Part shown: one piece after another, positions 1 to 64,000 of the stretch
How positions within the stretch are numbered: position 1 is the stretch's first letter
How the letters are laid out: the number at the start of each line of letters is the position of its first letter
Assembly (NCBI GenBank): GCA_026770705.1
Contig: JANJGN010000011.1
Span: forward strand, 92,628,001-92,692,000
DNA: 64,000 nucleotides
Source of the DNA: Isurus oxyrinchus
Lineage: Eukaryota
Direction: 5' to 3'
Translations under genes and position numbers: made by a program
The notes under the pieces: model-generated
Told to the model about the DNA's origin: nothing
The model's database searches: none
What the model saw: only the letters and a program-made list of their open reading frames with translations

Positions 1-1050
1 AAACACATCTTCCCTTCACCCCCCTTATCGGCATTCCGTAGGGATCGCTCCCTCCAGGCCACCCTGGTCCACTCCTCCATCACCCCCTACTCCTCAACCC
101 CCTCCTATGGCACCACCCCATGCCCACGCAAAAGATGTAACACCTGCCCCTTCACTTCCTCTCTCCTCACCGTCCAAGGGCCCAAATACTCCTTTCAAGT
201 GAAGCAGCATTTCACTTGCATTTCCCCCAACTTAGTCTACTGCATTCGTTGCTCCCAATGTGGTCTCCTCTACATTGGAGAGACCAAACGTAAACTGGGC
301 GACCGCTTTGCAGAACACCTGCGGTCTGTCCGCAAGAATGACCCAAACCTCCCTGTCGCTTGCCATTTTAACACTCCACCCTGCTCTCTTGCCCACATGT
401 CTGTCCTTGGCTTGCTGCATTGTTCCAGTGAAGCCCAACGCAAACTGGAGGAACAACACCTCATCTTCCGACTAGGCACCTTACAGCCTTCTGGTCTGAA
501 TATTGAATTCAACAACTTTAGGTCGTGAGCTCCCTCCCCCATCCCCACCCCCTTTCTGTTTCCCCCTTTTTTTTTTCCCCAATAAATTATATAGATTTTT
601 CTTTTCCCACCTATTTCCATTATTTTTAAATATTTTAAAATCTTTTATGCTCCCCCCACCCCCACTAGAGCTGTACCTTGAGTGCCCTACCATCCATTCT
701 TAATTAGCACATTCGTTTAGATAATATCACCAACTTTAACTTTAACACCTATGTGTTCTATTGTACCATTGTCGCTGACATCTTTTGATGATCTGCTTCT
801 ATCACTGCTTGTTTGTCCACACAACCACCTCTCTCTCTCTCTCTATCTCTCCGCCCCCCACACACACACCTTAAACCAGCTTATATTTCAACTCTTTCTT
901 GGACTCGAAATCAAGTTCTGTCGAAGGGTCATGAGGACTCGAAACGTCAACTCTTTTCTTCTCCGCCGATGCTGCCAGACCTGCTGAGTTTTTCCAGGTA
1001 ATTCTGTTTTTGTTTTGGATTTCCAGCATCCACAGTTTTCTTTGTTTTTA
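1..1050 (+). mobile_element. Penelope-like retroelement (Neptune-like), 3' part: Cys-rich linker, GIY-YIG endonuclease and 3' tail
   Basis: Frame is open from 1 to 528: ...CPRKRCNTC...NLVYCIRCSQCGLLYIGETKRKLGDRFAEHL...HFN...EEQHLIFRLGTLQPSGLN, a PLE GIY-YIG domain. The tail is shared with copies at 17662, 36023 and 56604. The 5' part lies outside the window. Confidence 0.93.
914..952 (+). ncRNA. Minimal type I hammerhead-ribozyme-like motif with variant core
   Basis: AGTT-CTGTCGA-A-GGGTC(atgag)GACTC-GAAA-C-GTC-AACT: stem I AGTT/AACT, stem II, GAAAC, GUC cleavage triplet. The core is CUGUCGA rather than CUGANGA. Confidence 0.65.
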
Positions 1051-3154: not shown

Positions 3155-4828
3155 CCCCCAGGGTCACCTGTGGGGCCCTGAAAGGAGCCACTGACGTAAA
3201 AATTGAACGCCAGAGTCCTTTTCATGGCCACATGGCACCAAATCCTGTAGCAACTGGCAGATGTGACCGACCAGTTCCCTAGACATGCGCAGTCTTCGGC
3301 AACATTACAGTGCAGTGCCAGGGAAAGGGCTGCACAATGGTTGAGGCGAGTTGCAGGGCCAGGGGGTGGGGGAAGAGCTGCACTGTAGTTGAGGCAAATT
3401 GGGGAGGGCAAGTGCTGCACTGCGGCTGAGTGTGGTACACAAACGCCTGCGGTGGGGGTTCTCAGTCATCTGCAGAGTAGCAAGCACTGTCTATAGACCC
3501 TGGGTCTAGCTTGGCACTGACCAGCAATTGCGTGCTGTGGCTCTTCAGTGGCGTGTGTGGGAATCCCAGCCATCCCTTCTTCCTGAGGGTGCTGCTCCTC
3601 CCTCTGCACAGCCAGGCACCTCCGTCATTCTCTTCTCCTTCGTCTCCACTCTCTGTAAGCCATGAGGCATACAACTAGGTCACCAGGCTCCATTCTGCTG
3701 ATGTACTCCTCCTGCAGGATGAAAGAAAGAGATGCATGGATTAGCATGTGTGTACTGAGAACCTCTATTGATTAAGCCTGAAGGCCCCTTAATGCATCCC
3801 AGAGAGTGCTGGCCATCACTTGGATGGTCAGAGTTCAATGCGCTGCATGGCTGCCCAAAACCCCACCCACCTCCACCCAACTCCACTTGACCAATTGGCT
3901 GCAGCTTTGCCCATTGGACTGCATGCTGTGCTCTTAGCTCAGGAGCAGGCATTCTCCTAACCCGCTCTGCAAGGCTGCACTGTTAGCTTGAACGATGAGA
4001 GAGACTGGTCCAAACAATTGCAAGGGACCGTGACTGCTCCACCAGTGACTGCTCCATGGCCAGCTTTCGCAAGGAAATTGTACATTGTGCCCAGTTATCC
4101 TATTGTTCTGAAGTCCAATAAAACGCTCATTAATTTGCAGTCTGTGCCCAAGGGGTGAAAAGCTGTGGAGCAATTGGCGGCACTTTCGTGACTCTGCGTT
4201 GCTTGAGTGGGCAGATAAGCTACAGGCCTGGCTCCAAGCATGCCAATGAGGCTGTGCTTGAACTGTCTCAGCTGCAGAGGAATGGTCACTTTATACAAGG
4301 TTTCCCTAATGTGTGGCTTTGTTTCACCACCCCCGCCCCCTGCAGGTGTTTGTTTACTACCCTCAACTGCAGTGCAGCCCTTGCCCCCACCAACTTGCCT
4401 CAACCACAATACAGCCCTTTCCCCCCTACCCCCCACCCTGCCCAACTCACCTCAACCACAGTGTAGCCCTTGCTCTGGCACCGCACTGTCATCTAGCTGG
4501 GAAAATGCAACTTGCCTGTGCCGCAGCCTGAATACGCGGTGCCTCAACACTGAGGTCCAACAGGTGACCCTTGAGAGTGCTGTGCAATATTACTGATGAA
4601 GCGTGGGGGGATGATTCCAGCGAGCTGGGCTTATAATGATATGCGGATGTATTGCAATGAAATTCCCAACGTGCGGCAGCAGGAAACGCAGCCCGCCTTT
4701 GGCGTGCAGAACAGACGATTGCAAACTTGTTTCACAATATCGTAAAACCGAGTTTTGACCTTCCTGCCATATTGTCCACTCATGTCTGCCAAGACACCCG
4801 ACACCAGCGGGCACAGAAAATTCCGCCC
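3155..4828 (-). mobile_element. Harbinger fragment: transposase-side terminus and transposase N-terminus
   Basis: Terminus rc GGGCGGAATTTTCTGTGCCCG matches 39767 and 7177. Reads CCRRLRMSRELVGHICQLLQDLVP...AFNFYVSGSFQG and is collinear with 39767-41400. Confidence 0.85.
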
Positions 4829-11242: not shown

Positions 11243-12954
11243 TGTTTCAGTCGGCAATTTACCTTATAAAGGTTTAGTAGCATTTGTTAGGATTCTGTCT
11301 GCCTTTGGAAACTTGGAAGAAGATACAGGAATTTCAAGAGGAGTGATGTACAATCTCTTTTCAATTATTTATCACATTAATTTAGCACATGGTACAGTCA
11401 AAGTGCAGTGACAATGTAAATATCCTCTGCATTTCCCAAAATGTCACTGGATTTCCACAATAATCCATTAATTTGTACAACTAATCCTTAATTTGCACAG
11501 CTACTTAACATCTCCTGAACTGCCCTCAGATTCCCACAATTATAACGGTAGCCCCTATATTTTCAGAAAGTGATGTTGTATCACCATAATTTAGGAGAAG
11601 TGGATGACTTGCTGACTGTGCACCAGAATCAAAGGTTTCAACCGGAAAGTCAGAAGCTACTGCAAAGGAAGTTCAAAAGACAAAACATCGGCATTAACAA
11701 TGCTCATGTGGGCGAAGCTAAGGAACTTACAGAACTCGCTGCTGCAAAAACACTGAAATAGTACAGAAAGGAAATCCTTTACCTAGTGAAATGAAACTGC
11801 TTCAATATAGTGCAGTGAAGGAGAGACTGATACAACGCCTTAATTCTCCAAAATAATTTACTGCCACTATGCTAGAAGCAGCAAATGGTCCTACTATTTC
11901 ATTGTGTTCAAAATGTCTTTCTCGCAATAATACTTACCAATCTTAATCCTTCTAACAGAAAAATGACATGTGATCCAGTGTAAAAAGAAACATGACACTT
12001 GTGCTGATGGCATTGGATTTGGTCTGGTGTTGCCATGGCAGGTAATGTGTCTTACGTGTCTCTGGCACGCGTTGGCATCTCCAGAAAACAATGTTATCTT
12101 GGGTGGGAATTGAAAATCAGTGTTCGACTTAATCTTATAATAATTTTCTAAATATATCGCTTGTATGTATGTACTTTAGAGTTGTTGTGCTAATGGTCCT
12201 TCGAATTAATTTTGTTGCGCACTTTTCTCCTTATGTGTCCCACATTTTTTCTATTTTTCCATAGACTTTTGTGCTCGAGAAAAGAAAGCCGAGAAGGCAT
12301 TCGGAAAAAAAAATGCTCCAAATTTATGACTACCGTTGGATTGTAAAGTCGGAAAAAAGGTTTATAAATCAAATGCAGAAGTTCGCAAAACAAAATGATT
12401 TTCCAGACATTCCAGGGGTCGAAAATTCCTCAGGTCTGAGGTGCAGGACCTGTTTTTTTGAATGCTCGCCAAGGGATCGCCTTTGTGCTGAAGTTCCTAT
12501 TAGCTACACTGGAGGCCGCTGTGCTACGAGATGAATTACCAGGAGCCGCTCGGCACAAAATCAACAGCAGGAAGCAGTGCTTGAAATAGGTCTCAGCTAA
12601 AAACGTTCAATTCTCTGCACCTTTCAAAGGATTTATTGTTCATCTTAATGTATGCATTTCTTTTTGTGGTGAAAAGAATACCTTGAAAGATAGAAATGTT
12701 ACTTATAACTATGTTGCATGAATATTTCTTAAACTAAATATTTAACATTATCTATCCACGGAATTGTACAGAAAATAGTTTAAAAAATTATAAGATTTTA
12801 ATGTTTTTTTCTAAACTGCACCATCGAGTGCTTTGAAGTTTGTGACGGATTTAAGATTAACTCTTTGAGTACCGTTTTTCATGGCCCTATATATGTAAGC
12901 TGGGGAATTTAGGATTTGTGGGTTTGTATATCCATGTTGCAATTTTATAAATGT

Positions 12955-13907: not shown

Positions 13908-16167
13908 GGGCTGGATCTTAACAGGTGGAGGGTGGGTGTGGGGCGCAGTTCCCCACCTCCCCATCCAGACTAAAATGTTGTGGGCTAGCTTGCCCGATAT
14001 CCTGATGGCTGCCCTGCAGAAATTTAACACTGGGAGCATGGTTAATTGCTTTGAGACCAGACTTCTGCCTCTAACTCAGCTCTGTTTTAGAGCACTGCTG
14101 GCCAATTGGGTGGCCAGTTGCTCCACAGTACCAGCAGCGCCAGGCGGGCATTCTCACCACACCGAGGAGCCCAGGTAAGTCCAGGGTCAGGGGTCTCAAT
14201 GAGGGTTGGTGAGGTGGGGATTGGGCGCAGATTCAAGAAGCCAGGGTAGGGGGAGGATCAAAGGGGGGAAGACCTTGGGGGCTTGCCTCTGATGGGCCTT
14301 GGGAACCCAGAAAGGAGGTCTCCCCACACCACTTGCCCAACACCAACCTTCAAAGCTAAAGCTGCCGGGTTTCCTGCATGGCTTCCGCCTTCTCCACCAT
14401 AGATAAAATAGCGATGGAGGCAGGATTAGGCCATTAATGTAGCCATTAATTTGCCAATGAAGTGCCTCAATAGGGCCCAAGGGTGAGTGGGCCGCCTGAT
14501 ATCTTCCCCTGTCACATAAGAGGGTCAGTAAGGTAAAGGGGGACTTGGAATTTGGTAAAGAAATGTCCTTGGCTCTGCATTGGTGGCATGGAAAGTGGTC
14601 ATGCAATGTTCAAGCATTGAATTGGGTCATCACCCATCTGGCATCATGAGGGCAGTAGAGCAGGGGACGAGGGTGCCAAGGACCATGGAGTGGCCACCTG
14701 TCCAAAAGGAAGGAGGCAGCTGGAGATGGAAGTACTATCAGATTTTTAGCCCAGTGGCAATGAGGGACAACATCTTCTGAAGGAAAGATGGAACCCTGAG
14801 TAGCAGGAAGGCAAGGGGAAATAAAGAGGGGCAGGAAGGTAATAAAGGCCATACCCTCACCACAGGATCTACCGTCGAAGATGGAACTAGCTGGAGATGA
14901 CCAAGACCCAGTGCAACACGATTCTACAATGGCCCAGGCAGATGGGCACAGATATCTGTAGCTTGGTGACTTAAGACTTTGCACTTCACAGCACTGCTCG
15001 CTGTGCCCTGCTCTTAGAAGTTCTTTGATCCTGACTCCTTGCAAGGACCTTCTGCATTTCTTGGTGACAGCTTGCAAGCTGCTGCACACCATTGCATTTT
15101 GTAGGTCATTGATGCCCTCTTTCCCAGAACGGGACAGTACATTCCTTTCATGACAGATATGGCCTCACAGAGACAGACAGCAATGTATTTCAGCACTATC
15201 TCTGGATTCCCCCAGGTACAGGACATCATTGGTTGTACACATGTGGCAATCAAGGCACCCAGAGACCAGCCAGTGAAATCCATCAACAGGAAAGCCTTCC
15301 ACTCCCTCAATGTCCAACTGGTTTGACCACAAGAATTATCTCCATGTGTGTAAGCTGACATAGCTCCATCATCCTCCAGCAATCCAGACTGCCTCAGATC
15401 TTCACTCCAACCTACACAAGTATATGAATGGATCCTAGGGAACAAAGGACATCCCTCAAAGACATGGCAATTCACCCCGCTACGAGCCCCAGACAAAGGC
15501 ACAGAGGTGATACAACCGATGCAATCTGCTCACTAGGACAACCACTGAGCGGGCTATAGGGCTTCTGACGATGCAATTCTGGTGCCTTACCTGATTGGTT
15601 GGTGTCCCAGATACTCTCCTGCAATGGTCTCAGTCATTGTGATGGACTGCTGCACTCTTCATAACATGGCCCTCCAGAGAAATGTAGACATTAAGGATGG
15701 TGAGGACCTGGAAGGACATGGTTTATCTTTGAAGGAGCAGGAGTTGAGAGAGGAGAAGGAAGAGAGTGCAGAGGGAGGTAAACAGAGCTAACCCCCCCAG
15801 GAGCAGTGGCCTGCTCCTGTCATGCTTTGGGAAGAGGACCTCCCTCACAGCCTCCAGCATTAAATATAGGTTGACATTGATGAAGTGAGATATCTTACTT
15901 CCTTCTGGTGCTGTGGAAGACTTTGGCACAATCTGCAGACTGCCCCTTAAGACAAGCAGTGACGGCTGCTGTGTGGAGTCTAAATCAGTCCCACACTTCA
16001 TCTGAGCCAGCTCCATTCCTACCCCCAGTGACTCTAAGTGGACAGGATATCCATATCGATTAAGGACTCACCCCCTGAAAAAAATAATCAGTTTCCTACT
16101 GGAGACAGGTTTCTGACCCAAAAAGCCCTGAAACCTGCTTCCCGCCTTGGTGGTGAAAATCCAGCCC
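13908..16167 (+). mobile_element. Harbinger derivative with decayed transposase (about 14760-15860)
   Basis: TIRs GGGCTGGATCTT...AAAATCCAGCCC. Reads ISGFPQVQDIIGCTHVAIKAPRDQP..INRKAFHSLNVQLV, WILGNKG, CCTLHNMALQR and an acidic tail, with stops and frameshifts. Confidence 0.85.
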
Positions 16168-16556
16168 ACAGAGTTTGTCAATAGAAGCTGGAATTTCCCA
16201 TGCCCTGGGCCCAAACATTGAGATTGAAGCCCAAGTTGTGCGGGCAATTGGAGAAGGATAACCCTAACTAGGGAAAAGTTCTTGGAAGCATTTTCTAAAT
16301 GAATTTATTAATTGTGTGAGTAAGTTTAGAAACTCTCATAAAGGTTCATTTTGAAGTATCATATTTTAAATGCTATTTTTAAGCTGTCTATCCTAAATGG
16401 AGTGCAGAGGAAGGAAAACGGTCAAACGCAGTTTATCATAATTATTTCAGTATTTTGTTTGGCTTCATGATAGAAGATTCCTCATCTCTGATTGGTAGTG
16501 AAAGCAGTTAGATGTTTGAGCATATCAAAATGTTTAGTTAACCCAACTAATAAACA

Positions 16557-17661
16557 GACTTAAAGTGGGATGCATAGCTAACTGTAATGTGTGATACATG
16601 CCTAATGCAAAATTTATAATTCTAGTGATATATTTCTTTTAATTTTCTTTCCTTTCTCATCTTTCTCTGTCTCATGGCAGTCACTCGACTCCAACTAAAG
16701 AAATGGCCAGATGATCCACTGTAGCACCTCTCTTGAAGCTGCCACCAACTGGGTGTGAGGAGCGAGGCTGGTTTCTGCCTCCAGTACAGCTGGGATAAAT
16801 AAACAGGATTCTGGCCTCTGAACATAAAACGAAGATGTGCAATCCATTTCTTTGCAGAACTTCAAAAGTTTGCTATCACAAGTTCAGCATGATGATTCAC
16901 TTAAAGCGAGTAATCAGAATATTTTACATACACTGTTTTGGAAATCTTAATATTTGGACAAACTTTCCAAATGATGTAACTACGTTCCATCAGCAAAACA
17001 CAGCCAGATAATCTATTCTCAGTATTAACATCATTGCACAAAAGAATGCTATGAGGTGTATCTAAGACTAAAATAAGGAACGTTATTTATGCTAAGATAT
17101 GCTAAATGCCTGTTTTGGGGAACAAGCTATATGTAAAACACTTTTGTAGGGGCGGTCTGTTTACACAGAAAGTTTTGCTGAGTGAGTTTTAGGTTGTGAG
17201 TTGTACAATTAATTTCTGTTTCATTTCACAATGAGAGTAATTTTAACAAACAAGGAAAGGTGGATTGAGCCACAGGGAAAGTAAAAAAAAAAAATAAGAA
17301 TTTTAAACCCAACACCAAGCCACCTCCTATGACCCATGCTGAACTTGTGATAGCAAACTTTTGAAGTTCTGCAAAGAAATGGATTGCACATCTTCGTTTT
17401 ATGTTCAGAGGCCAGAATCCTGTTTATTTATCCCAGCTGTACTGGAGGCAGAAACCTGCCTCGCTCCTCACACCCAGTTGGTGGCAGCTTCAAGAGAGGT
17501 GCTACAGTGGATCATTTCTTTAGTTGGAGTCGAGTGACTGCCATGAGGCAGAGAAAGATGAGAAAGGAAAGAAAATTAAAAGAAATATATCACTAGAATT
17601 ATAAATTTTGCATTAGGCATGTATCACACATTACAGTTAGCTATGCATCCCACTTTAAGTC
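16557..17661. repeat. Long inverted repeat of non-repetitive-looking DNA: arms 16557-16891 and 17335-17661, 443-bp spacer
   Basis: The arms are reverse complements, differing by 2 substitutions and one 8-bp indel (GCCAGATG, present only in the left arm). Confidence 0.97.
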
Positions 17662-18157
17662 AACAACTTCAGATCATGAACTCTCTTCTCAACCCTTTTT
17701 GATCCCCTTTTTCAAATATTTATTTTTAAATTTTCATATATACATTTTTTTCCCACCTATTGCTATTATCATTTTAAAAATTTATTTCTATTCATTGTTT
17801 AATCCCCACCTTTTAGCCTATTTTGATCTCTTCTCCCACACCGTCCCCTCCCCGCAACCTACTCCCACTAGGGCCATCTGTCACTTGCTCATCCTGCTTT
17901 CTACTCTTAATGTCACCATTAGCACCTCCTTTAGCCAGTATCACCACCCTTTCAACCTTTTGTTTATGACCTTTTTTGCAATCTCTCCTTTGCCTCCACC
18001 TATCACTGGCCTTCTATCCAGCTTCATCTGTCCCACATATATTTCACCACGTTTCTACTTCTCTTTAGTTCTGAAGAAGAGTCATCGGGACTCGAAACGT
18101 TGACTCTGTCTTTCTCTGTCAGACTTGCTGAGTTTTTGCAGCGATTTTCATTTTTGT
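17662..18157 (+). mobile_element. Heavily 5'-truncated PLE (3' UTR and tail only)
   Basis: Starts (TC)AACAACTTCAGATCATGAACTCTC, matching 57618 and 37060, and is collinear with 57620-58135. Confidence 0.9.
18067..18105 (+). ncRNA. Minimal hammerhead-ribozyme-like motif with canonical core
   Basis: AGTT-CTGAAGA-A-GAGTC(atcgg)GACTC-GAAA-C-GTT-GACT, with a perfect 5-bp stem II. Confidence 0.75.
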
Positions 18158-18789
18158 ACTAAACCACCTCCAATTTTCAGTGAATGCTGTTATCAGGGAG
18201 CAGGCAAACAATCTGCTGTCAAGATGTGGGTCGATCAGGGTTATCTTTTAGGAGGCTTTATAGCCCTATTTTTCATACATTGGAGACTGGGATTGCCAGT
18301 GCTTGGGAATTGTGGTAGTTGAAAGGAGGAGGGAAGAGCTGGATGAGGAGCAGAGGTGCTTCTCCCTGACCCAACAAGTGAGCCTCTTCACCTTCCCCCT
18401 CCAGTCCCCAGCTCTGACTAAGACTCTCCTCCACCTCCTTGATCAGTTGAAACAACTGTAACCCCCCCTCCCCCACTCCACGTCCTGCAATGTCAGTCTT
18501 ACCTATCTTCTTCCCACGTCCTTTTCCTCCCAACAGGCTGATGGTGGGAAAGTTAATGGAAAAAATTTAAAAGACATCCTGCAATTAATTTCTGCAGGAC
18601 ATTGGGGAAATCCACACTTTTGGGTTTTTGGTCTGGAAATTTCCTCAACACAACCCACTATGTTCCTGTGCCTGCCCCCCCCCACCCCCACCCCATTCAC
18701 CATCACACCCACCCCAGCATCCATCTCTCTTCACAGCCCTAAGTACACATCAGAGCTAATGAGTTCTTGATCTTGGATGGACAGCTAGA

Positions 18790-19070
18790 GGAAATCACTG
18801 TGAGATCAACAGGAGAGATGAGAGCACGTTGGAGATAAAAGGGGTGGCTGAGAGAGCAAGAGTCAATGTAAAACCAGCAGGGGGTGCAAGAGCACAGCTA
18901 GTATGAAGGGAACGATGGAGAGAACGAGAGAGTCACTGTGGGATCAACGGGAGAGGTGAGAGCACAGCGAGGATAAAAGAAGTTGTGAAAGAGCATGAGA
19001 GAGTCATCTGTGAGATAAGAGGGAGAGGCAAGAGCACGGTCAGGATAAAAGGAGTGGTGAAGGAGAGCGC
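18790..19070 (+). repeat. About 70-bp tandem repeat x4 at the CR1 5' end
   Basis: Unit approximately GAGTCACTGTGRGATCAACRGGAGAGGYRAGAGCACRG..AGGATAAAAGGAGTGGTGARRGAGC, starting near 18790, 18860, 18930 and 19001. Confidence 0.75.
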
Positions 19071-19692
19071 GATAGGCACTACAAGACGAACAAGTCTTCA
19101 AAGAAAATCAATGTGTAATGTCACAGGGAACTGGTTAAGTAATTGGTTGGTAAGTATTTTTCTCTTTTCTATCGCAACATGGGTATTTGTTTTAAGCTAG
19201 GAGCTGGGAAATTAAGAATATAAAGCAGATCACTATAGTGGTAAGTGAATTAATATGGTTATAAGCTCAGAGCAAGTCTAGAGATATTATTTGAAATTAA
19301 TAATTCCTAGGTTGTTAAAGAGGGAATAGAAATTTTTTTTTACATCATGAATGTTTGCAATTCCTGTGTCATGTGAGAACTCACATGTCTTGGGGATCCC
19401 GTGTGGAGTAAGTGTCTCCAGTTGCTGCAGCTTGAGTTTAGGATTTCTGAGTCATTGTGAAGCATCAGGGAGAATAAGAGTTTCCTGGATTGTATGTTCC
19501 AGGAGGTGACCACCTGACAGGCAGTATGAGTTCAGGATAGCAGGTGGATGACCATCAGGAAGAGTAGGGAGAGGCAAGGAGTCTAGGAGATTTCTGCTAC
19601 TCTCAGTTACTCAGCATTGGAGACTGCTGGGAATGACAGAACTCTGAACGACTGCAGTCCTAACCTTGGCACCTATGGCCAAGGAACTGTAT

Positions 19693-20920
19693 TGGCTGGA
19701 TTTTCACAACTGAGGCAGGTAGCTCAAGTTGGAAAATTTCCCAGCCCAGCACACTGTGTCTGGAAACAGTGCCCCTAACAGTGCGGTTTTCACTCAGGGA
19801 GGGCTGGCGAGTGGGTGCGGGATGGAGACAGGCCTACCTCCCCCAGACACACAGTGGAGGCAACTGCTGAGTGCCAAAGCAGGCGGTTTAAAAGACCTGT
19901 GACTTCATCTCAGTTGTTTTGTGAAATATCAGGCCCTCTAGCCCTCACCCCTCACATTCCCTCACTCCCCCCTCAACCCACTCAACATCACCCCTCATAC
20001 CCGCCATGCTCATTCATGTCCCCTACCCAACCCCACAGCCCTTTATAGCCCCCTTGCTAACTCATGGCATGTCCATGATCATTCAGCCTGTGAACACCCT
20101 GTACAGATCCGATGAGCCCTATAGTAACAAAGACACATGTGGAACTGCTTAAAAACACACATTCATAATTTGCACTTGGTTGAGAGCCCAGACTCTCATT
20201 AAGCTTTCCCTTTGTTGAAACAGATGCACAGAAGTGAAAACATTGCTTGATTAACAGCTTTACAAACATTTTTTTTATCTTAGATCTATTGTAGTTTCTC
20301 TTATTGAATCTTTAAAGGTCTGATTGATTGACACTTTTATAGGTTGTAGTAACAACAGTTTTCTTAAGAAAATTATGAAAAGTTTTTTTAAGCAGTTCCC
20401 CATATGCCATTGTTACTATAGGGCTCATTAGATCTGTACAGTATGCATACGGGTGAATGACCATGCAAGTGCCATGAGTTGGCAAGAGGACATAAGTGGC
20501 CATTGGGCTGGGTAGAGGGAATGAGTGGGCATAAGTTGGCAAGAATGCTATAAGGGGCCAATGGGGGAGGGGGGGTGGCGCGGGTTGGGGCATGAGTGCA
20601 TGGGTGGCATAACTTAGAAGTTATCTTTCAAAAGGTCCCTGAACCCAAACTGTGGTTCATGCCTCCTCTGGGGGCAATGAACCATGAGTCCTTGAGAAGC
20701 TGGTCTGACTCCATGAAAATTGTGGGGTACTAGGAGATGCCTAACCTCGTAATAGAGCTGGCCTGGTTGGGAATGCAGGATGTGTGCTCAGTGCCTGCAC
20801 CCTTCTCCCATTGAAGAAAACTGGGAGCGCCAGGACCGGGGCTAGGAATCCAAATATTGGGCCCCATCCTCCATTTTTAAAGGTCCACGGAGTCTCAGTG
20901 ACTCCACGAAATTCAGAGCC
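19693..20920. mobile_element. Harbinger-type non-autonomous element inserted in CR1 ORF1
   Basis: Ends TGGCTGGATTTTC...GAAATTCAGAGCC with 3-bp flanks TAT/TAC. Removing it rejoins the CR1 as GGAACTG-TAC-AGGTGGG. It contains an internal inverted repeat. Confidence 0.75.
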
Positions 20921-28744: not shown

Positions 28745-29969
28745 TAGCTGATGGTTCATTGGATTAAAGCCTCCTGGGTGTCCCTGCCTCCCTGGAGTAT
28801 GCCTGGGTCAGCGTCTACCCCCTCAGCATTCTCCTGTGCATGCTCATCCTCAGACTCACTGCTGGACTCATCGTGTGCAGACGGAGCAACTGCATCTCTA
28901 CCTTCCTTGTCCACTGCGTTCCCCCTTTCCAGCGCAAGATTGTGGAGAGCGCAGCATGCAACCACTATCAGCGCCACACGATCTGGGGGAGCATTGGGGT
29001 GCACCCCCTGAACGGTCCAGGCATCAGAAACGCACCTTGAGAAGACCAGTGGTTTTCTCTCCACCACAGCCTTGTGGAGCCGTGGCTCCTATTATACCGC
29101 TGCTCAGCTTTTGTTCTTGGATGGCGGAGAGGCATCATGAGCCACCTTCTGAGGGGATAGCCCTTGTCACCCAGCAGCCATCCATCCAGACTGAAGACCC
29201 CCGGCACCTGGGAGTGTCTCAGGATGTAGGCATCGTGGAAGCTGCCTGGGTACCTTGCACAGACTTGTAGAATCTGCATCCTATGGTCACACACTATCAG
29301 CACGTTCATGGAGTGGAAACCCTTCCTGTTGACGATGGCACCGGGCTCACCTGCTGGCACCTTGATGGCCACATGTGTGCAGTCAGTGGCACCTTGGACG
29401 CGGGGGAAGCCAGCAATGGCTGCGAAGCCTCTGGCTCGCTGTGTCTGGCTGGTCTCATCCCAGCGGTAGTGGATGAAAGTCAATGAATGCCTGAACAGAG
29501 AATCTGAGACCTGCTTGACACAAGTGTGGATAGCTGACAGGGAGACTCCGCAAAGCTCACCCACCGATCCCTGGAAAGAGCCGGAGGCATAGAAGTTGAG
29601 GGCAGCCTTGACCTTCAATGCCACTGGCATGGGGTGCCCACCCACACAGTTGGCGCGGACCTCAGGGCCTATCATCTGACAGATATAGTTGACTGTCTCC
29701 TTTGAGAGACGGAACCTCCTTCAGCATTGCACCTCAGACATGTTGAGGTAGCAGCTTCGCCGCCTATATACCCTGGCAGCAGGATAATGGCGTCTTCTGC
29801 GGCCCCTTCCGCCTTGGACTTCCTATTGGCCCTGCATCCCTTGTGCCTGTGCCTCTCCTCCCACAGGTGGCTCCCCTGGAGGCTGAATGTGGATTCCTGG
29901 CCTCCTCCCCGTTCTGGCCCTCCCTTCCTCCTCAGAGGAGATGCCTCCAGCGGATAGCACAACTCCCAT
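28745..29969 (-). pseudogene. Harbinger DDE transposase (DDE_Tnp_4/HARBI1-like), disrupted
   Basis: ALNFYASGSFQ, GFPRVQGATDCTHVAI, NRKGFHSMNV..VCD, RYPGSFHDAYIL, WLLGDKGYPL, ACCALHNLA and an acidic tail, with several stops and frameshifts. Confidence 0.93.
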
Positions 29970-36022: not shown

Positions 36023-37565
36023 GGTGCTGCTTCATGCTCTCATCTGGACTTGGAAAAATGTATTAATTTTGATTCCAATTTCCACCGCTCCATCTTTTTC
36101 ACATGGTACATCTCTGACACTTCCCTTCCCTTCCTTGACCTCTCTGTTTCAATTTCTGGTGATAGACTGTCCACCAATATTCATTACAAGCCTACCGACT
36201 CCCACAGTTATCTCAACTACAGCTCCTCACACCCCGCTTCCTGGAAGGACTCCATCCCATTCTCTCAGTTTCTTTGCCTCAGTCGCATCTGTTCTGATGA
36301 TGCCACTTTCAAAAACAGTTCCTCTGACATTTCTTCCTTCTTCCTTAACTGAGGTCTTCCACCCACAGTGGTTGACAGAGACTTCAACCGTGTCTGGCCC
36401 ATCTCCCGCGCATCCGCCCTGACACCTTCCTCTCCCTCCCAGAAACAGGATAGGGTCCCCCTTGTCCTCACTTATCACCTCACCAGCCTCTGCATTCAAA
36501 GTATCATCCTCTGCCATTTCCGCCAACTCCAGCATGATGCCACCACCAAATGCATCTTCCCTTCACCCCCCACCCCCCCGGCAGCATTCCACAGGGATCG
36601 TTCCCTCTGGGATACCCTGGTCCACTCCTCCATCACCCCCTACACCTCAACCCCCTCCCACGACACCTTCCCATGCAACTGCAGAAGGTTCAACACCTGC
36701 CCCTTTACTTCCCCTCTCCTTACCGTCCAAGGGCCCAAACACTCCATTCAAGTGAAGCAGCATTTCACTTGCACTTCCCTCAATTTAGTCTACTGCATTC
36801 ACTGCTCCCAATGCCGTTTCCTCTCATTGGAGAGACCAAACGCAGACTGGGTGACCGCTTTGCGGAACACCTTCGGGCTGTCCACAAGCATGACCCAGAC
36901 CTCCTTGTCGTTTACCATTTCAACACTCCACCCTACTCTCATGCACACATGTCCATCCTTGGCCTGCTGCATTGTTCCAGTGAAGCTCATGCAAACTGGA
37001 GGAACAGCACCTCATCTTCCGATTAGGCACTTTACAGCCTTCCGGACTGAATATTGAGTTCAACAATTTTAGATCATGAACTCTCTCCTCCATCCCCACC
37101 CCCTTTCTGATCCCCCTTTTTCCAATAATTTATATAGATTTTTCTTTTCCCACCTATTTCTGTTATTTTTAAATGTATTTCCATCCATTATTTTATCTCT
37201 GCCTTTTAGCCTATTTCGATCCCTTCCCCCCACCCCACCCCCACTAGGGCTATCTGTACCTTTATAATCACATTCCTTAGATAATATCACCAGCTTCAAC
37301 ACCTCTTTGTCCTTTTGTCTACGACATATTTTGGTTATCTTCACCCTATTACTGACCCTCTATCCAGCTCTACTTGTCCCACCCCCCATTAAACCACCTT
37401 ATATTTCACCTCTTTTCTATTTTTCCTTAGTTCTGTTGAAGAGTCATACAGACTTGAAATGTTAACTGTGTTCCTCTCCGCAGTCGCTGTCAGACCTGCT
37501 GAGTTTTTCCAGGTATTTTGTTTTTGTTTTGGATTTCCAGCATCCGCAGTTTTTTGCTTTTATTT
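36023..37565 (+). mobile_element. 5'-truncated PLE (RT thumb, GIY-YIG, tail), frameshifted
   Basis: LPFLDLSVSISGDRLSTNIHYKPTDSHSYLNYSSSHP..SIPFSQF and CNCRRFNTC..LVYCIHCSQC. Flanks AAATAAGATGG (36012-36022) and AAATAAGAAGG (37566-37576). Hammerhead-like motif at 37429-37467. Confidence 0.93.
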
Positions 37566-40982: not shown

Positions 40983-42220
40983 ATGGAGCCTGGTGAACTA
41001 CCTATATGCCTGATGGCCTACAGAGCATGAAGACAACAGAGGAGAGAGTGACTGAGGCTCCTGGCTGCACAGAGGCAGGAGCAGCAACCTCAGGAAGAAT
41101 GGTTGACTGGGGCTCCTGCACACGCTGCCCAAGAGCCACAGCGAGCCTTTGCAGGCCGGCGCGTAGCGACATCCAGGGTCTGAAGACACCGCCTTTCATC
41201 CTTACAGATGATGGAGAACTAGTGTTGCCGGAGACTGTGCATGTCTGGGAAAATGATAGGTCATATCTGCCAGTTACTGCAGGATTTGGTGCCACGGGAA
41301 CATGGCGGGCATCCACTGCCAATGGGTGTGAAAGTGACTGCAGCGCTCAATTTCTACACCAGTGGCTCCTTTCAGGGCTCCACAATTGATCTCTGGGATT
41401 GCACAAGCCTCTGCCCACAAAGGCATCCATGAGGTCTTGGATGCCACCTTTGCGAGGACACACAACTTTGTGCATTTTGCCTGGGACCAGGACAGCCAGG
41501 GTGTAAGAGCAATTGGAATCGCCCAGATCTCGGGTTTCCCACAAGTGCAGGGTGCGATTGACTGCACTCATGTGGCACTCAGATTTCCGTTGCAATGCAC
41601 AGTGGACTACATCACCTGCAAGAGGCTCCATTCTCTGCATGTGCAGCTGGTGTGTGACCACCAAAAACACATCCTGCAGGTGTGCGCATGGTTTCCAGGG
41701 ACACCTACATCTTCAGTCGGTCACAGATCCCTGGGGTCTTCCAGGGTCCATGGAGGCTGCAGCGATGGCTCCTCGGGGACAAGGACTACCCATAGCAGCC
41801 GTGGCTAATGACACCTATGCAGTGGCCTCAGGCTGCAGCAGAATGATGCTATATTGAGGGTCATGCAGCAACTCGCAACTTGGTGAAGCAGGCCATTGGG
41901 ATGCTGAAGATGAGGTTCGGGTGCCTGGACCAGTCCGGTGGAGCCCTGCAATATAGTCCACAGAGGGTGTCACACATTGTCATCATCTGCTGCACCCTTT
42001 ACAACCTGGTGCTGCAACAGGGAGAGGAGCTGGCTGAGGAGGAGATGGAGGAGCTGGAGGTCTCCTCTGATAAAAAGGACGCTGACGGGGATGAGGGTAA
42101 AGAGGTCCTCGAAGGCAATGATGATGGGATGAGGCCCTTGCACTGGCCAGACGAGGCAGGTGCACTCAGGAGGCCCTCATAGCTGCCAGATTTGTGAAGG
42201 ATGATGACAAAATGCAGTGA
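40983..42220 (+). pseudogene. Harbinger DDE transposase, disrupted
   Basis: AALNFYTSGSFQG, ISGFPQVQGAIDCTHVAL, HSLHVQLVCDH, WLLGDK, VKQAIGMLKMRFGCLD..GGALQYSP, CCTLYNL, with frameshifts. Confidence 0.92.
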
Positions 42221-54645: not shown

Positions 54646-56603
54646 ATAACCTTTCCTCCAAGTTAAATGTCTAAGATAGTTTTGCAAGATTAGACTGGCC
54701 TGGATTACTGGATCTTTTATTGACGTATCGGCTACCTGTTGTGAAGAAACAGGGCCATAGCACCCTTAAAATGGTGTGATATAATTTATTGCCCTATTCC
54801 CAATGGCAAATGGTCAATACTATCTCCCCAAGGAATTACCATCGGCCAACGAGCTTGTCTATCTGAGTCAGTCAATAGGTTCTTTTAAGATGTAAACCAA
54901 GATCCTATGACATATTTGGGATCTCCATTGTCATTTTAGAAATTAATTGGATGGAGTGTGCACTTTATTCACACTCTCCCCATTCGCAACTAATGGCTCA
55001 GCCATAAAAAGGCAGAGAAGATAAGTTTTAATTTATTTCTGTGGGGTCAGGAAGACTTGAAGTGCTCCACAAAAACAATCTGGTCTACTGCTACATTGGG
55101 TTGACCCAAGAATGAACCTCTACATCTCGGACCAACCTGGAAGACAGGCAGCTAGATACTTCGGCAGCCCAGGGCCACTGGCTGCACTGGGGAAGGTCCC
55201 ATTTTCTGCCTGCAGCTCATGTGCCCTATTTAAAGGACGCTTGCACCTCAGAAGGGACTGGGCCACCACTGACAGTATTATGCAGCAAGTTGCCTGAAAA
55301 TCTCAGGAGAGAAATGTCTGCTCCACTCTTCTGAGGATCAAAACGCATATACCTGAGTTAGGACAAATATGTATATATTATACTGTGATACCTGTTTTCC
55401 TGTATATATTAAACAGTGAGCTGGCTTAAGTTTCCAATGGTATTGTATGGGTTGGTGGTGCTACAAATGTAATGTTAGATGATAGGTAGTACCCCACTGT
55501 TTTTAGTATGTTATGTGACATATCAAACACTATTTGAGCAGACACATCAATAATGCTGGTTCAGCCTGCATGTAGTAGTCATATGATGTTATTGTGGAGT
55601 AGTCTGGATTTTTGAGACAGTGGCCATGTTCATATAGGTTAAATAAATGGTAAGAGTTTTAGTTTTTAATTATTTTAATTTTAAATTATGCAAATAATTT
55701 GGTCCCAGTTCTCCTGGACAGCATTCTTCCACCTTGACCCCTACTATTCTCAAATGGATTTCCACCGTGGACCAATGAGAGGTGTCAGAAGCTCAGTCAT
55801 CTAGCTACAGGTTGATGCTAGGTGATTATCACCATTAAACTGCCATTGTTCTGCACACTACTCCCTGGTCCCCTAATACAAACCAATTCCATGGGTCCCC
55901 TGCTTGTCAGGGTCTGCAAACAAAGCCTTTATCCATAGGCCATCTGGTCAAATGCACCAAACTAGCTCCGGCCATACTTTTGGCTGATTTTAGAAATTAC
56001 ATTTCTCTCTTTATGGTTTCAACACATTCTTCCTTCTTCAGATTACCTTCAAGCCTTCCTCTTACCATTCATCAGGAATTTTGCCACGACCCTCTCCACC
56101 AAGCAACTTTATATGAAATTACTTATCTCCCATTCAGCACTATCTTGAGTTCCATACCAACACTTGCCCTATGTAGCACATCCACTTACTTAGTGATCAG
56201 TCCCAGTAAACAGTATTTTAGAAAGCCCTTTCCTTTCTAGTATTTCTACACTTTAACTCATGTTTCCTGTCTCAACTCCTAATGCTTTGGCCACTGTTAT
56301 CTTTCCCTCCTTCTATCTATCTCCCCTAGTCTCCCTCTTCTTTCCATGGTGGCCAGCTCTCTGTCTCCCTCTCCTTCTCCTTGCACTTCTCCACTCCCCT
56401 TCTTTTCTACCCTTCCTGATCCCTCCCTCTTCCTTCTGTATGTAGTTGTCTGACCCAGCATGACCTTTGGTTTGTTTGAAACATTGAAAGACAAACAGAG
56501 CTAAAAATATTCCCATACAATTTCCTAATATGGAGAGGAATATTGACAGCATATGCTTCAACATCAAATCTGGAACTTTTGGTAAACCGACACATAAATA
56601 TCT

Positions 56604-58171
56604 TCATGCTTTCATCTGGACCTGGAAAAATTTATGAGTTTTGCTTCCAATTTCCACCCCTCCATCATTTTCACATGGTCCATCACTGACATTTCCCTTC
56701 CTTGACCTGTCTCAATTTCTGGTGATAGACTATCGACCAATATCCATTACAAGCCCACTGACTCCCACAGCTACCTTGACTACAGCTCCTCATACCCCGC
56801 TTCCTGTAAGGACTCCATCCCATTCTTTCAGTTCCTTTGCCTCCGTTGCAGCTGTTCCAATTATGCCACTTTCCAAAACAGTTTTTCTGACATGTCTTCC
56901 TTCTTCCTTAACCAAGGTTTTCCACCCACAGTGGTTGACAGGGCTCTCAATTGTGTCTGGCCCATCTCCCGCGCATCTGCCCTCACACCTTCCTCTCCCT
57001 CCCAGAATCATGATAGGGTCCCCCTTGTCCCCACTTAACACCCCACCATCCTCTACATTCAAAGGATCATCCTCCACCATTTCTGCCAACTCCAGCATGA
57101 TGCAATCACCTAATGCATCTTCCCTTCACCCCCCTTGTCAGGATTCTGTAGGGACTGTTCCCTCCGGGACACCCTGGTCTACTTCTCCATCACCCCCTAC
57201 ACCTCAACCCCCTCCCACGGCACCTTCCCATGCAACTGCAGAAGGTGCAACACCTGCCCCTTTACTTCCCCCCTCCTCACCATCCAAGGGCCCAAACACT
57301 CCTTTCAAGTGAAACAGCATTTCACTTGCACTTACCTCAACTTAGTCTACTGCATTCGCTGCTCCCAATGCAGTCTCCTCTCCATTGGAGAGACCAAACG
57401 CAGACTGGGTGACCGCTTTGCAGAACACCTTCGGTCTGTCTGCAAGCATGACCCAGACCTTCCTGTCGCTTGCCATTTCGACACACCACCCTGTTGTCAG
57501 GCCCACATGTCCGTTCTTGGCCTGCTGCAATGTTCCAGTGAAGCTCAATGCAAACTGGAGGAACAGCACCTCATCTTTCAATTAGCACTTTACAGCCTTC
57601 CGGACTTAAAATTGAGTTCAACAACTTCAGACCATGAACTCTCTCCTCCATCCTCACGCCATTTTTGATCCCCTTTTTTCTGATAAATATATATTTTTAT
57701 ATTTTTTTCTTTTCCCACCTATTTCTATTATTATTTTTAAAATTTATTTCCATCCATTGTTTTATCTCCACCTTTTAGTCTATTTCGATTCCCTCCCCCC
57801 ACCCTACCCCCACTAGGGCCATCTGTCACTTGTTCATCCTGCTTTCTACCCTTAATGTCACCATTAGCACGTCCTTTAGATAAATCACCACCATCAACAC
57901 CCCTTTGACCTTTTGTTTATGACATCTTTGGCAATCTCTCCTTTGCCTCCACCTATCACTGGCCCTCTATCCAGCTCCAGCTGTCCCACCCCCCTTAAAC
58001 AGCTTATATTTCACCACATTTCTATTTCTCTTTAGTTGTGATGAAGAGTCATACGGACTCGAAACGTTAACTCTGTCTTCCTCTCCACAGATGCTGTCAG
58101 ACCTGCTGAGTTTTTCCAGCAATTTTGTTTTTGTTTCAGATTTCCAGCATCCGCAGTATTATGCTTTTATC
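56604..58171 (+). mobile_element. 5'-truncated PLE with 8-bp TSD
   Basis: AAATATCT at 56596-56603 and 58172-58179. CNCRRCNTC..LVYCIRCSQCSLLSIGETKRRLGDRFAEHL. Hammerhead-like motif at 58034-58072 with mutated core GTGATGA. Confidence 0.94.
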
Positions 58172-62130: not shown

Positions 62131-63037
62131 AGTTGGTAGAAGACAGTAAATAGTATTGTACTCGAATTGGAAAGAAGATACTATTGGTGATCCACAAAGA
62201 TCCGTGCAGAGGTTTTAAATGTTCACTATACTTATTAATGACTTAGACAACATAATAGAAATCCACATATCCGGGTTTGCAGGATAGCTGAGGCATTAGA
62301 GGTATTGATAGATTAAGTGAGTGAGCAGAGCTGTGGCAGATGGATAATATGATCTCATTCATTTTGAGCCAAAAACAGATAGATCTAAGTATTTTTGAAA
62401 TAGTGGTAAGCTAGGAACAATGGAGGTTCAAAGAGATTTCGGATTTCATGTACATAGATCCCTAAATGTAGTAGTCATGTACAAAAAAATCAAGAAGTCT
62501 AATAGAATGTTAGCCTTTCTATCTAGAGGGCTAGAATATAAATGGGGGAAAGTTATTTTTATCACATTTATACAAAGCCTTGATTAGACCACATCCAAAT
62601 TACTGTGTACAGTTCCGGGCACCACAGCTTGGAAAGGATATATTGGTCTGGTGAAGTGAATATAACTCCAAGATTTTATTTACAAAGAATGATTATACAA
62701 ACTAGGCATGTATTCCCTGAAGGTTAAGGTGTGATTTCATTGAGCTTTGAAAGGAACTGTTAGGGTAGATAGAGAAAAAAACTTTCTGCTGGAGGTGGAG
62801 CCTAGGATAAGGAGACATAACCTTAAAACCAGAGGCAGGATAGCCAGTTGAACACAGGAACTCACACCATAGGATGCCTCAAACTTAGATACAATGACAT
62901 TCTAAAAGCCAATCTCAGAGCCTGTAAATTGGGGAAGAGGGTGGTAGAATTGTGGAATTCTCTCTCTCACAAAAAGCAGCAGATCACTAAATTTAATACA
63001 TTTGAATTTGAAGTTGGTAGATTTTTGCTAGCCGAGA
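62130..63037 (+). mobile_element. Degraded CR1 RT C-terminal fragment
   Basis: FTILINDLD, NRMLAFLSRGLEYK, LYKALIRPHPNYCVQFRAP, RVVELWNSL. Confidence 0.85.
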
Positions 63038-63689: not shown

Positions 63690-64000
63690 CCAGGTTTGTT
63701 TTTTGCCCATTTAGTGAGACCCAATTTACAGGCTCTGAGCTTGGCTTTTAGAATGTCATTGTATTTAAGTTTGAGGCCTCCTATGCTGCCGGTTCCTGTG
63801 TTCAGCTGGCTGTAGAATACTGCCTTTGGTTTGCGGGAATCCTCCATGCGAACTACTTGGCTGATCCAGTCAAGCGGAGTTGGGATGAACATGTTCTCGA
63901 TACCAGGTATGTACTTGCAAAATCTTTGTTCTTATGGATTTTGTCCTGCTGCTTGATGCTGTAGATAGATCTTAAGCAATGAAGGTGGAATGCACCTAGT
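63690..64000 (-). mobile_element. RTE-clade LINE C-terminal fragment
   Basis: LGAFHLHCLRSIYSIKQQDKI.. and WISQVVRMEDSRKPKAVFYSQLNTG..GGLKLKYNDILK, RTE post-RT motifs. Confidence 0.85.

Follow-up and report, generated by a model that had tools for sequence, protein, structure and literature searches.

The locus considered here occupies positions 16557 to 18171 of the window, by which we mean the whole 64,000-nt stretch of DNA that was analysed, and consists of two inverted arms of host DNA, the second of which adjoins the 3' part of a decayed Penelope-like element (PLE) bracketed by a target-site duplication (TSD). The stretch is present in 19 public sequencing runs from six studies, which belong to two organisms that we call A (share up to 0.85) and B (share about 0.5). 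Contigs were compared for four of the 24 runs listed, X1 and X3 being from one sample of organism A and X5 and X15 from two samples of organism B, and the contigs of each run were read in part (50-86%). The features of the locus, in order along the window, are as follows.

16557-16891, + strand: donor (left) arm, non-repetitive host DNA and the apparent template of the inverted copy; delimited by alignment, by two-copy depth and by contigs that end at 16891 in X1, X3 and X5
16703-16710, + strand: 8 nt flanked by two ATG, missing from the inverted copy in organisms A and B
16892-17313, no strand assigned: spacer of single-copy DNA up to the first TSD copy; hardly covered by contigs, which in itself proves nothing
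17314-17327, + strand: left TSD copy of the old PLE insertion, 12/14 match; may run a few nt further
17328-17336, + strand: filler and CA microhomology, of which 17329-17336 is an 8-mer from the PLE GIY-YIG coding region
17335-17661, - strand: right arm, the 327-nt inverted copy, with a 2-nt microhomology at each end; appears to take the place of 162 nt of the PLE
17660-18157, + strand: 3' part of a decayed Neptune-type PLE, with its last six codons and stop (17677-17679) and 3' region, no tail
18067-18105, + strand: candidate minimal type I hammerhead-like motif, with CUGANGA core, 5-bp stem II, GAAA and 4-bp stem I
18158-18171, + strand: right TSD copy, 12/14 match

When 16557-16891 was aligned with the reverse complement of 17335-17661 the two arms were 97.0% identical over 335 columns (E-value 2e-160), differing by substitutions at 16670 (T/C) and 16769 (T/A) and by one 8-nt indel, which agree exactly with the extents and the number of differences given in an initial annotation of this DNA. 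The arms are perfectly matched out to their last base and lie 443 nt apart (16892-17334). At its far end the right arm stops at 17661 and homology of the PLE to the copies at 57618 and 37060 starts at 17660, and the TC at 17660-17661 is common to both, a 2-nt microhomology that had likewise been described correctly; a second one, CA at 17335-17336, had been overlooked. Both microhomologies, at 2 nt, are short enough to be chance. The arm matches 16557-16891 alone and no PLE copy in the window resembles it, and the earlier description, in which local host DNA was the template of an inverted copy and microhomology joined this copy to a PLE, was upheld. The 8 nt missing from the right arm were likely lost by polymerase slippage, either during the copying or soon after it.

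Contigs from both organisms carried both forms of the arm. In organism A the X1 contig has the left-arm alleles and the X3 contig has the right-arm 8-nt deletion together with the 16769 allele, and both contigs end exactly at 16891. In organism B (X5) the undeleted form (16629-16740) was assembled at a depth of 14.4 and the deleted form (17486-17589) at 11.7, while the part common to both arms (16711-16891), which shows no difference and also ends at 16891, had a depth of 27.4, giving the arm two-copy depth relative to the 10.4-14.9 found otherwise. Run X15 provides indirect support for B with a contig ending at the same base (16658) as in X5. The junction of the PLE 3' end with its flank is crossed by contigs spanning 18116-18683 in X1, X5 and X15. 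The two long contigs of organism B carry 5 differences from the window in 559 sites and 11 in 568, a divergence of ~1-2%, and we infer that both organisms have the PLE and the two arms, with the adjacency of arm and PLE in B taken from depth and contig ends. We considered whether the two arm forms in B might be alleles of a single copy, and rejected this, since a 2,489-nt flank contig reaches half the depth of the common part, which moreover stops at the boundary of the arm. The presence of both arm forms in contigs of A and B at two-copy depth, with ends at the arm boundary, also argues against an assembly artefact and against a dispersed repeat; the latter, which the initial annotation had kept in view, is further countered by the single self-match of the arm in the window. 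Nor did we meet the arm without the PLE or the PLE without the arm, either of which that annotation had named as evidence against its reading; the relative B has both.

The focal PLE was assigned by DNA homology, 17660-18157 matching three longer copies in the window (6-1050, 36030-37563 and 56602-58170), and the identity of the family was read from the copy at 1-525. Translation of this copy gave 175 open codons that encode a CX4CxxC linker as well as a GIY-YIG domain containing two cysteines, which are the features by which Neptune-type PLEs are defined in PMC8557442. Its Pfam score for GIY-YIG was 23.0 bits against a cut-off of 22.6 (E-value 1e-4), and its Atlas matches, at 0.95-0.96, had GIY-YIG on 12-22% of their members; the frames of the 36-kb and 57-kb copies, which are decayed, had no Pfam matches. 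A scan of both strands of the 64 kb for a hammerhead-like pattern found four sites (914, 18067, 37429 and 58034), one per long PLE copy. At 58034 the first core position is a G, and two of the copies depart from CUGANGA at other positions. Rfam did not report a hammerhead motif in 16000-19000, and at E-values up to 5 it returned six weak matches, all far under gathering scores. Placed by its C-terminal features, hammerhead motif, tail and TSD, the family appears to be a Neptune-type EN+ PLE. It resembles the Neptune-clade PLEs described in PMC8557442, PMC11167929 and PMC3846280 both in its C-terminal region (GIY-YIG with two cysteines in the motif, CX4CxxC linker) and in its 3' hammerhead motif, optional 30-40 nt tail, 5' truncation and short TSD. 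The focal PLE ends 35-38 nt short of the 3' end of the other three long copies, which had been overlooked. Since the optional 30-40 nt tail of PLEs has been tied to two reverse-transcription start sites (PMC11167929) and the missing 35-38 nt fits such a tail, 18157 is plausibly the true 3' end of the focal PLE.

Among the other copies in the window, those at 36030 and 56602 are ~15% apart in their 3' regions and have different TSDs and flanks, yet share the same element start base, which hints either that truncation prefers this point or that the copies belong to a defined non-autonomous form of 1.55 kb. The copy at 1-525 retains an uninterrupted 175-codon C-terminal frame, yet has the most divergent 3' region of the four copies, and probably represents a separate subfamily. 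Exact-motif scans for further PLE copies in metagenome contigs, viral contigs and prokaryote genomes gave no hits.

The two copies of the 14-mer that brackets arm and PLE match at 12 of 14 positions; of 20,000 random position pairs given the same freedom of register, 0.035% matched as well as this, and we regard the pair as very probably a true TSD. The initial annotation had noted the mismatch at 2 of 14 positions as a caveat, and this mismatch fits the old age of the PLE. Between the left TSD copy and the arm there is a 7-nt filler (17328-17334), also overlooked earlier. The 8-mer at 17329-17336 occurs four times on the + strand of the window, the others being at the homologous place in three PLE copies (338, 36890 and 57448), and in all three of these covering copies it lies 162-163 nt upstream of the point where the focal PLE resumes. 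A match of this kind is expected by chance for 0.6-4.2% of random starts, depending on the target used, and the filler is likely the original 5' end of the element. Alternatively, a longer TSD may end in it, or it may be a microhomology site that set the truncation point; under either reading of the filler the TSD remains old. Both runs of organism B show an insertion of 8 letters after 18174, which is 3 nt beyond the right TSD copy, and on the far side of this insertion the right flank matches the filler, by eye, in 7 of 10 columns.

The arms and the element could be dated separately. In A the arms differ at 2 of 327 sites, both changes having arisen in A (16670 in the left arm, 17457 in the right arm), and in B they differ at at least four sites that are B's own, one in the left arm (16675) and three private to its right arm in the X5 contig (17537, 17541 and 17559). 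Six substitutions over four arm lineages of 327 nt come to about 0.5% each, which agrees with the A-B distance. A and B have none of the six in common, the 8-nt indel being the only shared difference, and in the covered parts of B no fixed substitution occurs in both arms. With all six lineage-specific, the arms must have been identical except for the indel when A and B split.

The PLE gave a much larger figure. When the 36-kb copy served as outgroup, the focal PLE branch showed changes at 38 of 421 sites (9.0%) against 6 of 421 on that of the 57.6-kb copy, the 9% being an upper bound that includes changes in the source lineage and is taken from four copies in one window; away from gaps, the counts were 22 of 266 and 3 of 266. 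The focal PLE also lacks five segments that both the 36-kb and the 57.6-kb copy have. In contigs from the family, the 57.6-kb allele accounted for ~99% of the depth at 17735 (all four runs), 70-88% at 17789, 63-90% at 17863 and 36-67% at 17905, and loose-end consensus at 17948 and 18036-18037 supplied sequence absent from the focal PLE, and at the handful of sites that can be checked against the family in this way the focal changes look private. One 85-nt contig identical to 17803-17887 had a single-copy depth of 22.4. Another, of 79 nt and identical to 17920-17998, had a depth of 43.4, ~2x the 20 of the flank, and could derive from a near-identical source copy. The TSDs followed branch length, matching at 8/8 positions in the 57.6-kb copy, 11/13 in the 36-kb copy and 12/14 in the focal copy, and the probability of at least two mismatches in 14 is 0.003-0.025 at the age of the arm and about 0.7 at that of the PLE. 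A Fisher test of the age gap (p 5e-19) overstates the case, as the changes on the PLE branch need not all be post-insertion, and was set aside. On these counts the PLE appears much older than the arm, whose level of mutation is about a twentieth of that in the element, and because of this gap the arm likely came from a later copying or repair slip and not from the insertion. The templated segment, the element and the TSD therefore do not appear to be of one age (~0.5% per arm, ~9% as upper bound for the PLE, 2/14 in the TSD), and the proposal in the initial annotation that a single insertion event built the hairpin finds no support in these figures or in the five deletions in the PLE.

Our preferred explanation, to which we assign a probability of roughly 0.7, is an old 5'-truncated PLE insertion with TSD followed by a later local template switch of the 3-2-1-4 type that added the inverted host copy. 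In the first step, a Neptune-type PLE would have been copied from the tail-less start at 18157 to a truncation in the endonuclease coding region (17328-17329), leaving the 14-nt TSD, and would then have decayed by about 9%. In the second, shortly before the A/B split, a top-strand 3' end within the PLE, ending CA, would have come to lie on its own strand at 16890-16891, by fold-back or by a switch of template, from where copying would have run leftwards to 16557 with one 8-nt slip before rejoining the PLE at TC 162 nt further on, with the result that ~162 nt of PLE were swapped for the 327-nt inverted copy. The order of these switches would be 3-2-1-4 of the four-point model. The setting may have been a replication fork or end-joining break repair, the same product being expected from both. 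The geometry (arms, CA and TC) and the age gap are observed directly, and the process of the switch is a reconstruction from them; that the flanks were collinear in the ancestor is suggested by the PLE paralogues, in which the 8-mer has its place upstream of the return point. An orthologue with the PLE but lacking the arm was not seen, organism B being the sole relative.

Strand polarity bears on which end was extended. By the established polarity of repair, 5' resection of the left end exposes the top strand and removes the bottom strand. A top-strand fold-back would suit this polarity, its template strand being the one that resection exposes. The initial annotation had instead invoked priming by the cDNA end, which would need the bottom strand at 16557-16891, the strand that by this polarity would have been removed.

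What started the switch may be sought in the element itself, and we mention tentatively, as an unlikely trigger, that an endonuclease of the family, at a time when the family was still active, re-cut the old PLE copy near the end of its reading frame and that fold-back repair then captured host DNA in inverted orientation. On its own branch the 57.6-kb copy has an age of ~1.3%, not far from that of the arms, and a purified PLE has been reported to cut at ATT near its own ORF-pLTR junction (PMC11167929). At our locus 17 nt separate the return point from the stop codon downstream, and in the three paralogues an ATT lies a few bases upstream. One locus and a 3-nt motif lend re-cutting weak support, and none of three other junctions in the window is alike. 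If it were true, old PLE copies would be recurring seeds of long host hairpins genome-wide.

Against the two-step explanation we weighed a single old event that made PLE and arm together, by fold-back of the upstream end of the target during 5' joining, with a later conversion or template switch re-equalising the arms shortly before the A/B split. Such an event would account for an arm that fits exactly between TSD and PLE with no second hit at the same place, it could make use of the filler as the end of a longer TSD (with the insertion behind 18174 in B), and homogenisation of inverted arms by template switching has been published (PMC8604942, PMC8794818). However, the reset would have to reach the last base of both arms and leave no diverged stub, the 8/8 match of the filler to the PLE frame would be left to chance, and since the split no substitution has been copied to both arms of B in the covered parts while the 8-nt indel has persisted in both A and B. 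We consider this history improbable.

We rate still lower the model of the initial annotation, in which a PLE source that had already diverged or decayed gave rise to a single recent insertion, upstream host DNA being copied during 5' joining. That the end of the arm is the exact start of PLE homology, and that one contig inside the PLE has about double depth, both speak for it, and it has published relatives. Templated local DNA and inversions at the reciprocal end are known for L1, both from 22 cases (bioRxiv 2024.08.27.596794) and from three inversions and three templated insertions (PMC11702581), and flank-derived 5' extra nucleotides have been reported for the fish L2 element ZfL2 (PMC4245944). 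These cases share with our locus the presence of near-site host DNA at the 5' junction of a retroelement, but as described in the available text of those reports they arise with the insertion, whereas here the ages separate two events, in a PLE instead of an L1 or L2. The L1 templated insertions are moreover typically <250 bp and within 15 bp of the site, compared with 327 nt at a distance of at least 420 nt here. A recent insertion would also have to have left a TSD with 2/14 mismatches at ~1% age (P 0.003-0.025), and its source would need five deletions and 9% of changes that are absent from the family majority at the tested sites. Of three other PLE 5' junctions tested in the window, none has an inverted host copy within 3 kb. 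An assembly artefact (a fold-back read or amplification chimera) we hold to be very improbable given the two arm forms in each organism with their organism-specific substitutions and the depth and contig ends set out above, even though among the contigs listed for the four runs none crosses the arm junctions or the spacer 16970-17404, a gap that in itself proves nothing.

The later template switch that we favour belongs to a described class of mutation. Events of the 3-2-1-4 type made up 31% of 794 filtered template-switch events between human and chimpanzee (Loytynoja and Goldman 2017, PMC5453318), and as in our locus they comprise a reverse-complement copy of a nearby upstream segment, an inverted repeat and a return further on. 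As that study frames them they are short clusters of tens of bases, in contrast to the 327 nt, 443-nt loop and probable 162-nt loss found here within a retroelement. A second likeness is with fold-back insertions at double-strand breaks in yeast (PMC11724301), where a resected end folds back, an inverted copy is made and capture takes place with 0-5 nt of microhomology (median 2). These are mostly of 5-34 nt (up to >150), with an imperfect 10-nt inverted repeat and a 41-nt loop, whereas at the focal locus the priming homology is 2 nt and exact and the loop is 443 nt. The usual inversion at PLE 5' ends, according to PMC8557442 and PMC3846280, is of the element's own sequence, in agreement with what the initial annotation had said of such inversions; here the inverted segment matches host DNA at 16557-16891 only and is apparently younger than the element. 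A literature search with most subscription journals outside its coverage found no report of host-derived inversions at PLE 5' junctions. Taken together, the structure is real, is a fairly large fixed example of a known mutation class, and was probably not built by the PLE insertion.

The locus offers a clean, datable and germline-fixed example of a mid-size template switch, and illustrates that a truncated retroelement need not have brought with it the host DNA found between it and a TSD. Because such host DNA may be later, the parts should be dated before loci of this kind are counted as insertion by-products. If PLE copies were found to be enriched for such events, this would link PLE endonucleases to the formation of host-DNA hairpins.

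The effect of the locus is probably neutral, with no function indicated. If transcribed, the arms are predicted to pair in a long stem (-709 kcal/mol for 16540-17680). In a search for a host gene between 9.9 and 22.5 kb, 66 of the 123 frames of at least 48 aa were scanned against Pfam with no matches, and a crude splice-site scan near the locus gave no convincing exon chain. Of the 19 runs with the stretch, which came from a DNA-directed search, 0 are recorded as RNA, a count without bearing on expression. Within the donor arm, 16640-16803 contains a pyrimidine tract whose terminal CAG is at 16680, 13 open codons before a stop, and an AATAAA near 16797. These features resemble a terminal exon, for which no upstream gene was found, and may be chance; were the exon real, the inverted copy would be antisense to its splice acceptor. 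Farther upstream, at 11567-11758 on the + strand, a 64-codon open stretch follows an AG and ends in a stop within AT-rich, single-copy-looking DNA; this frame had no Pfam match and no Atlas match above 0.77.

The window as a whole is repeat-rich animal DNA and contains other inverted pairs and decayed frames. The segments 62826-62933 and 63720-63832, ~790 nt apart, form an inverted pair that is 87% identical over 113 columns, and may have arisen through a local inversion of greater age or be two pieces of a single repeat. Two further inverted pairs, at 78-79% identity (20006-20171 with 20370-20532, and 3304-3456 with 4336-4492), resemble the terminal inverted repeats of small DNA elements. Decayed frames at 28968-29720 (- strand), 41338-41808 (+ strand) and 15113-15480 (+ strand) resemble Harbinger-type transposases; a frame within 15113-15480 had no Pfam match. 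Finally, 18776-19080 is made up of degenerate tandem units of ~70 nt that are 70-77% alike.
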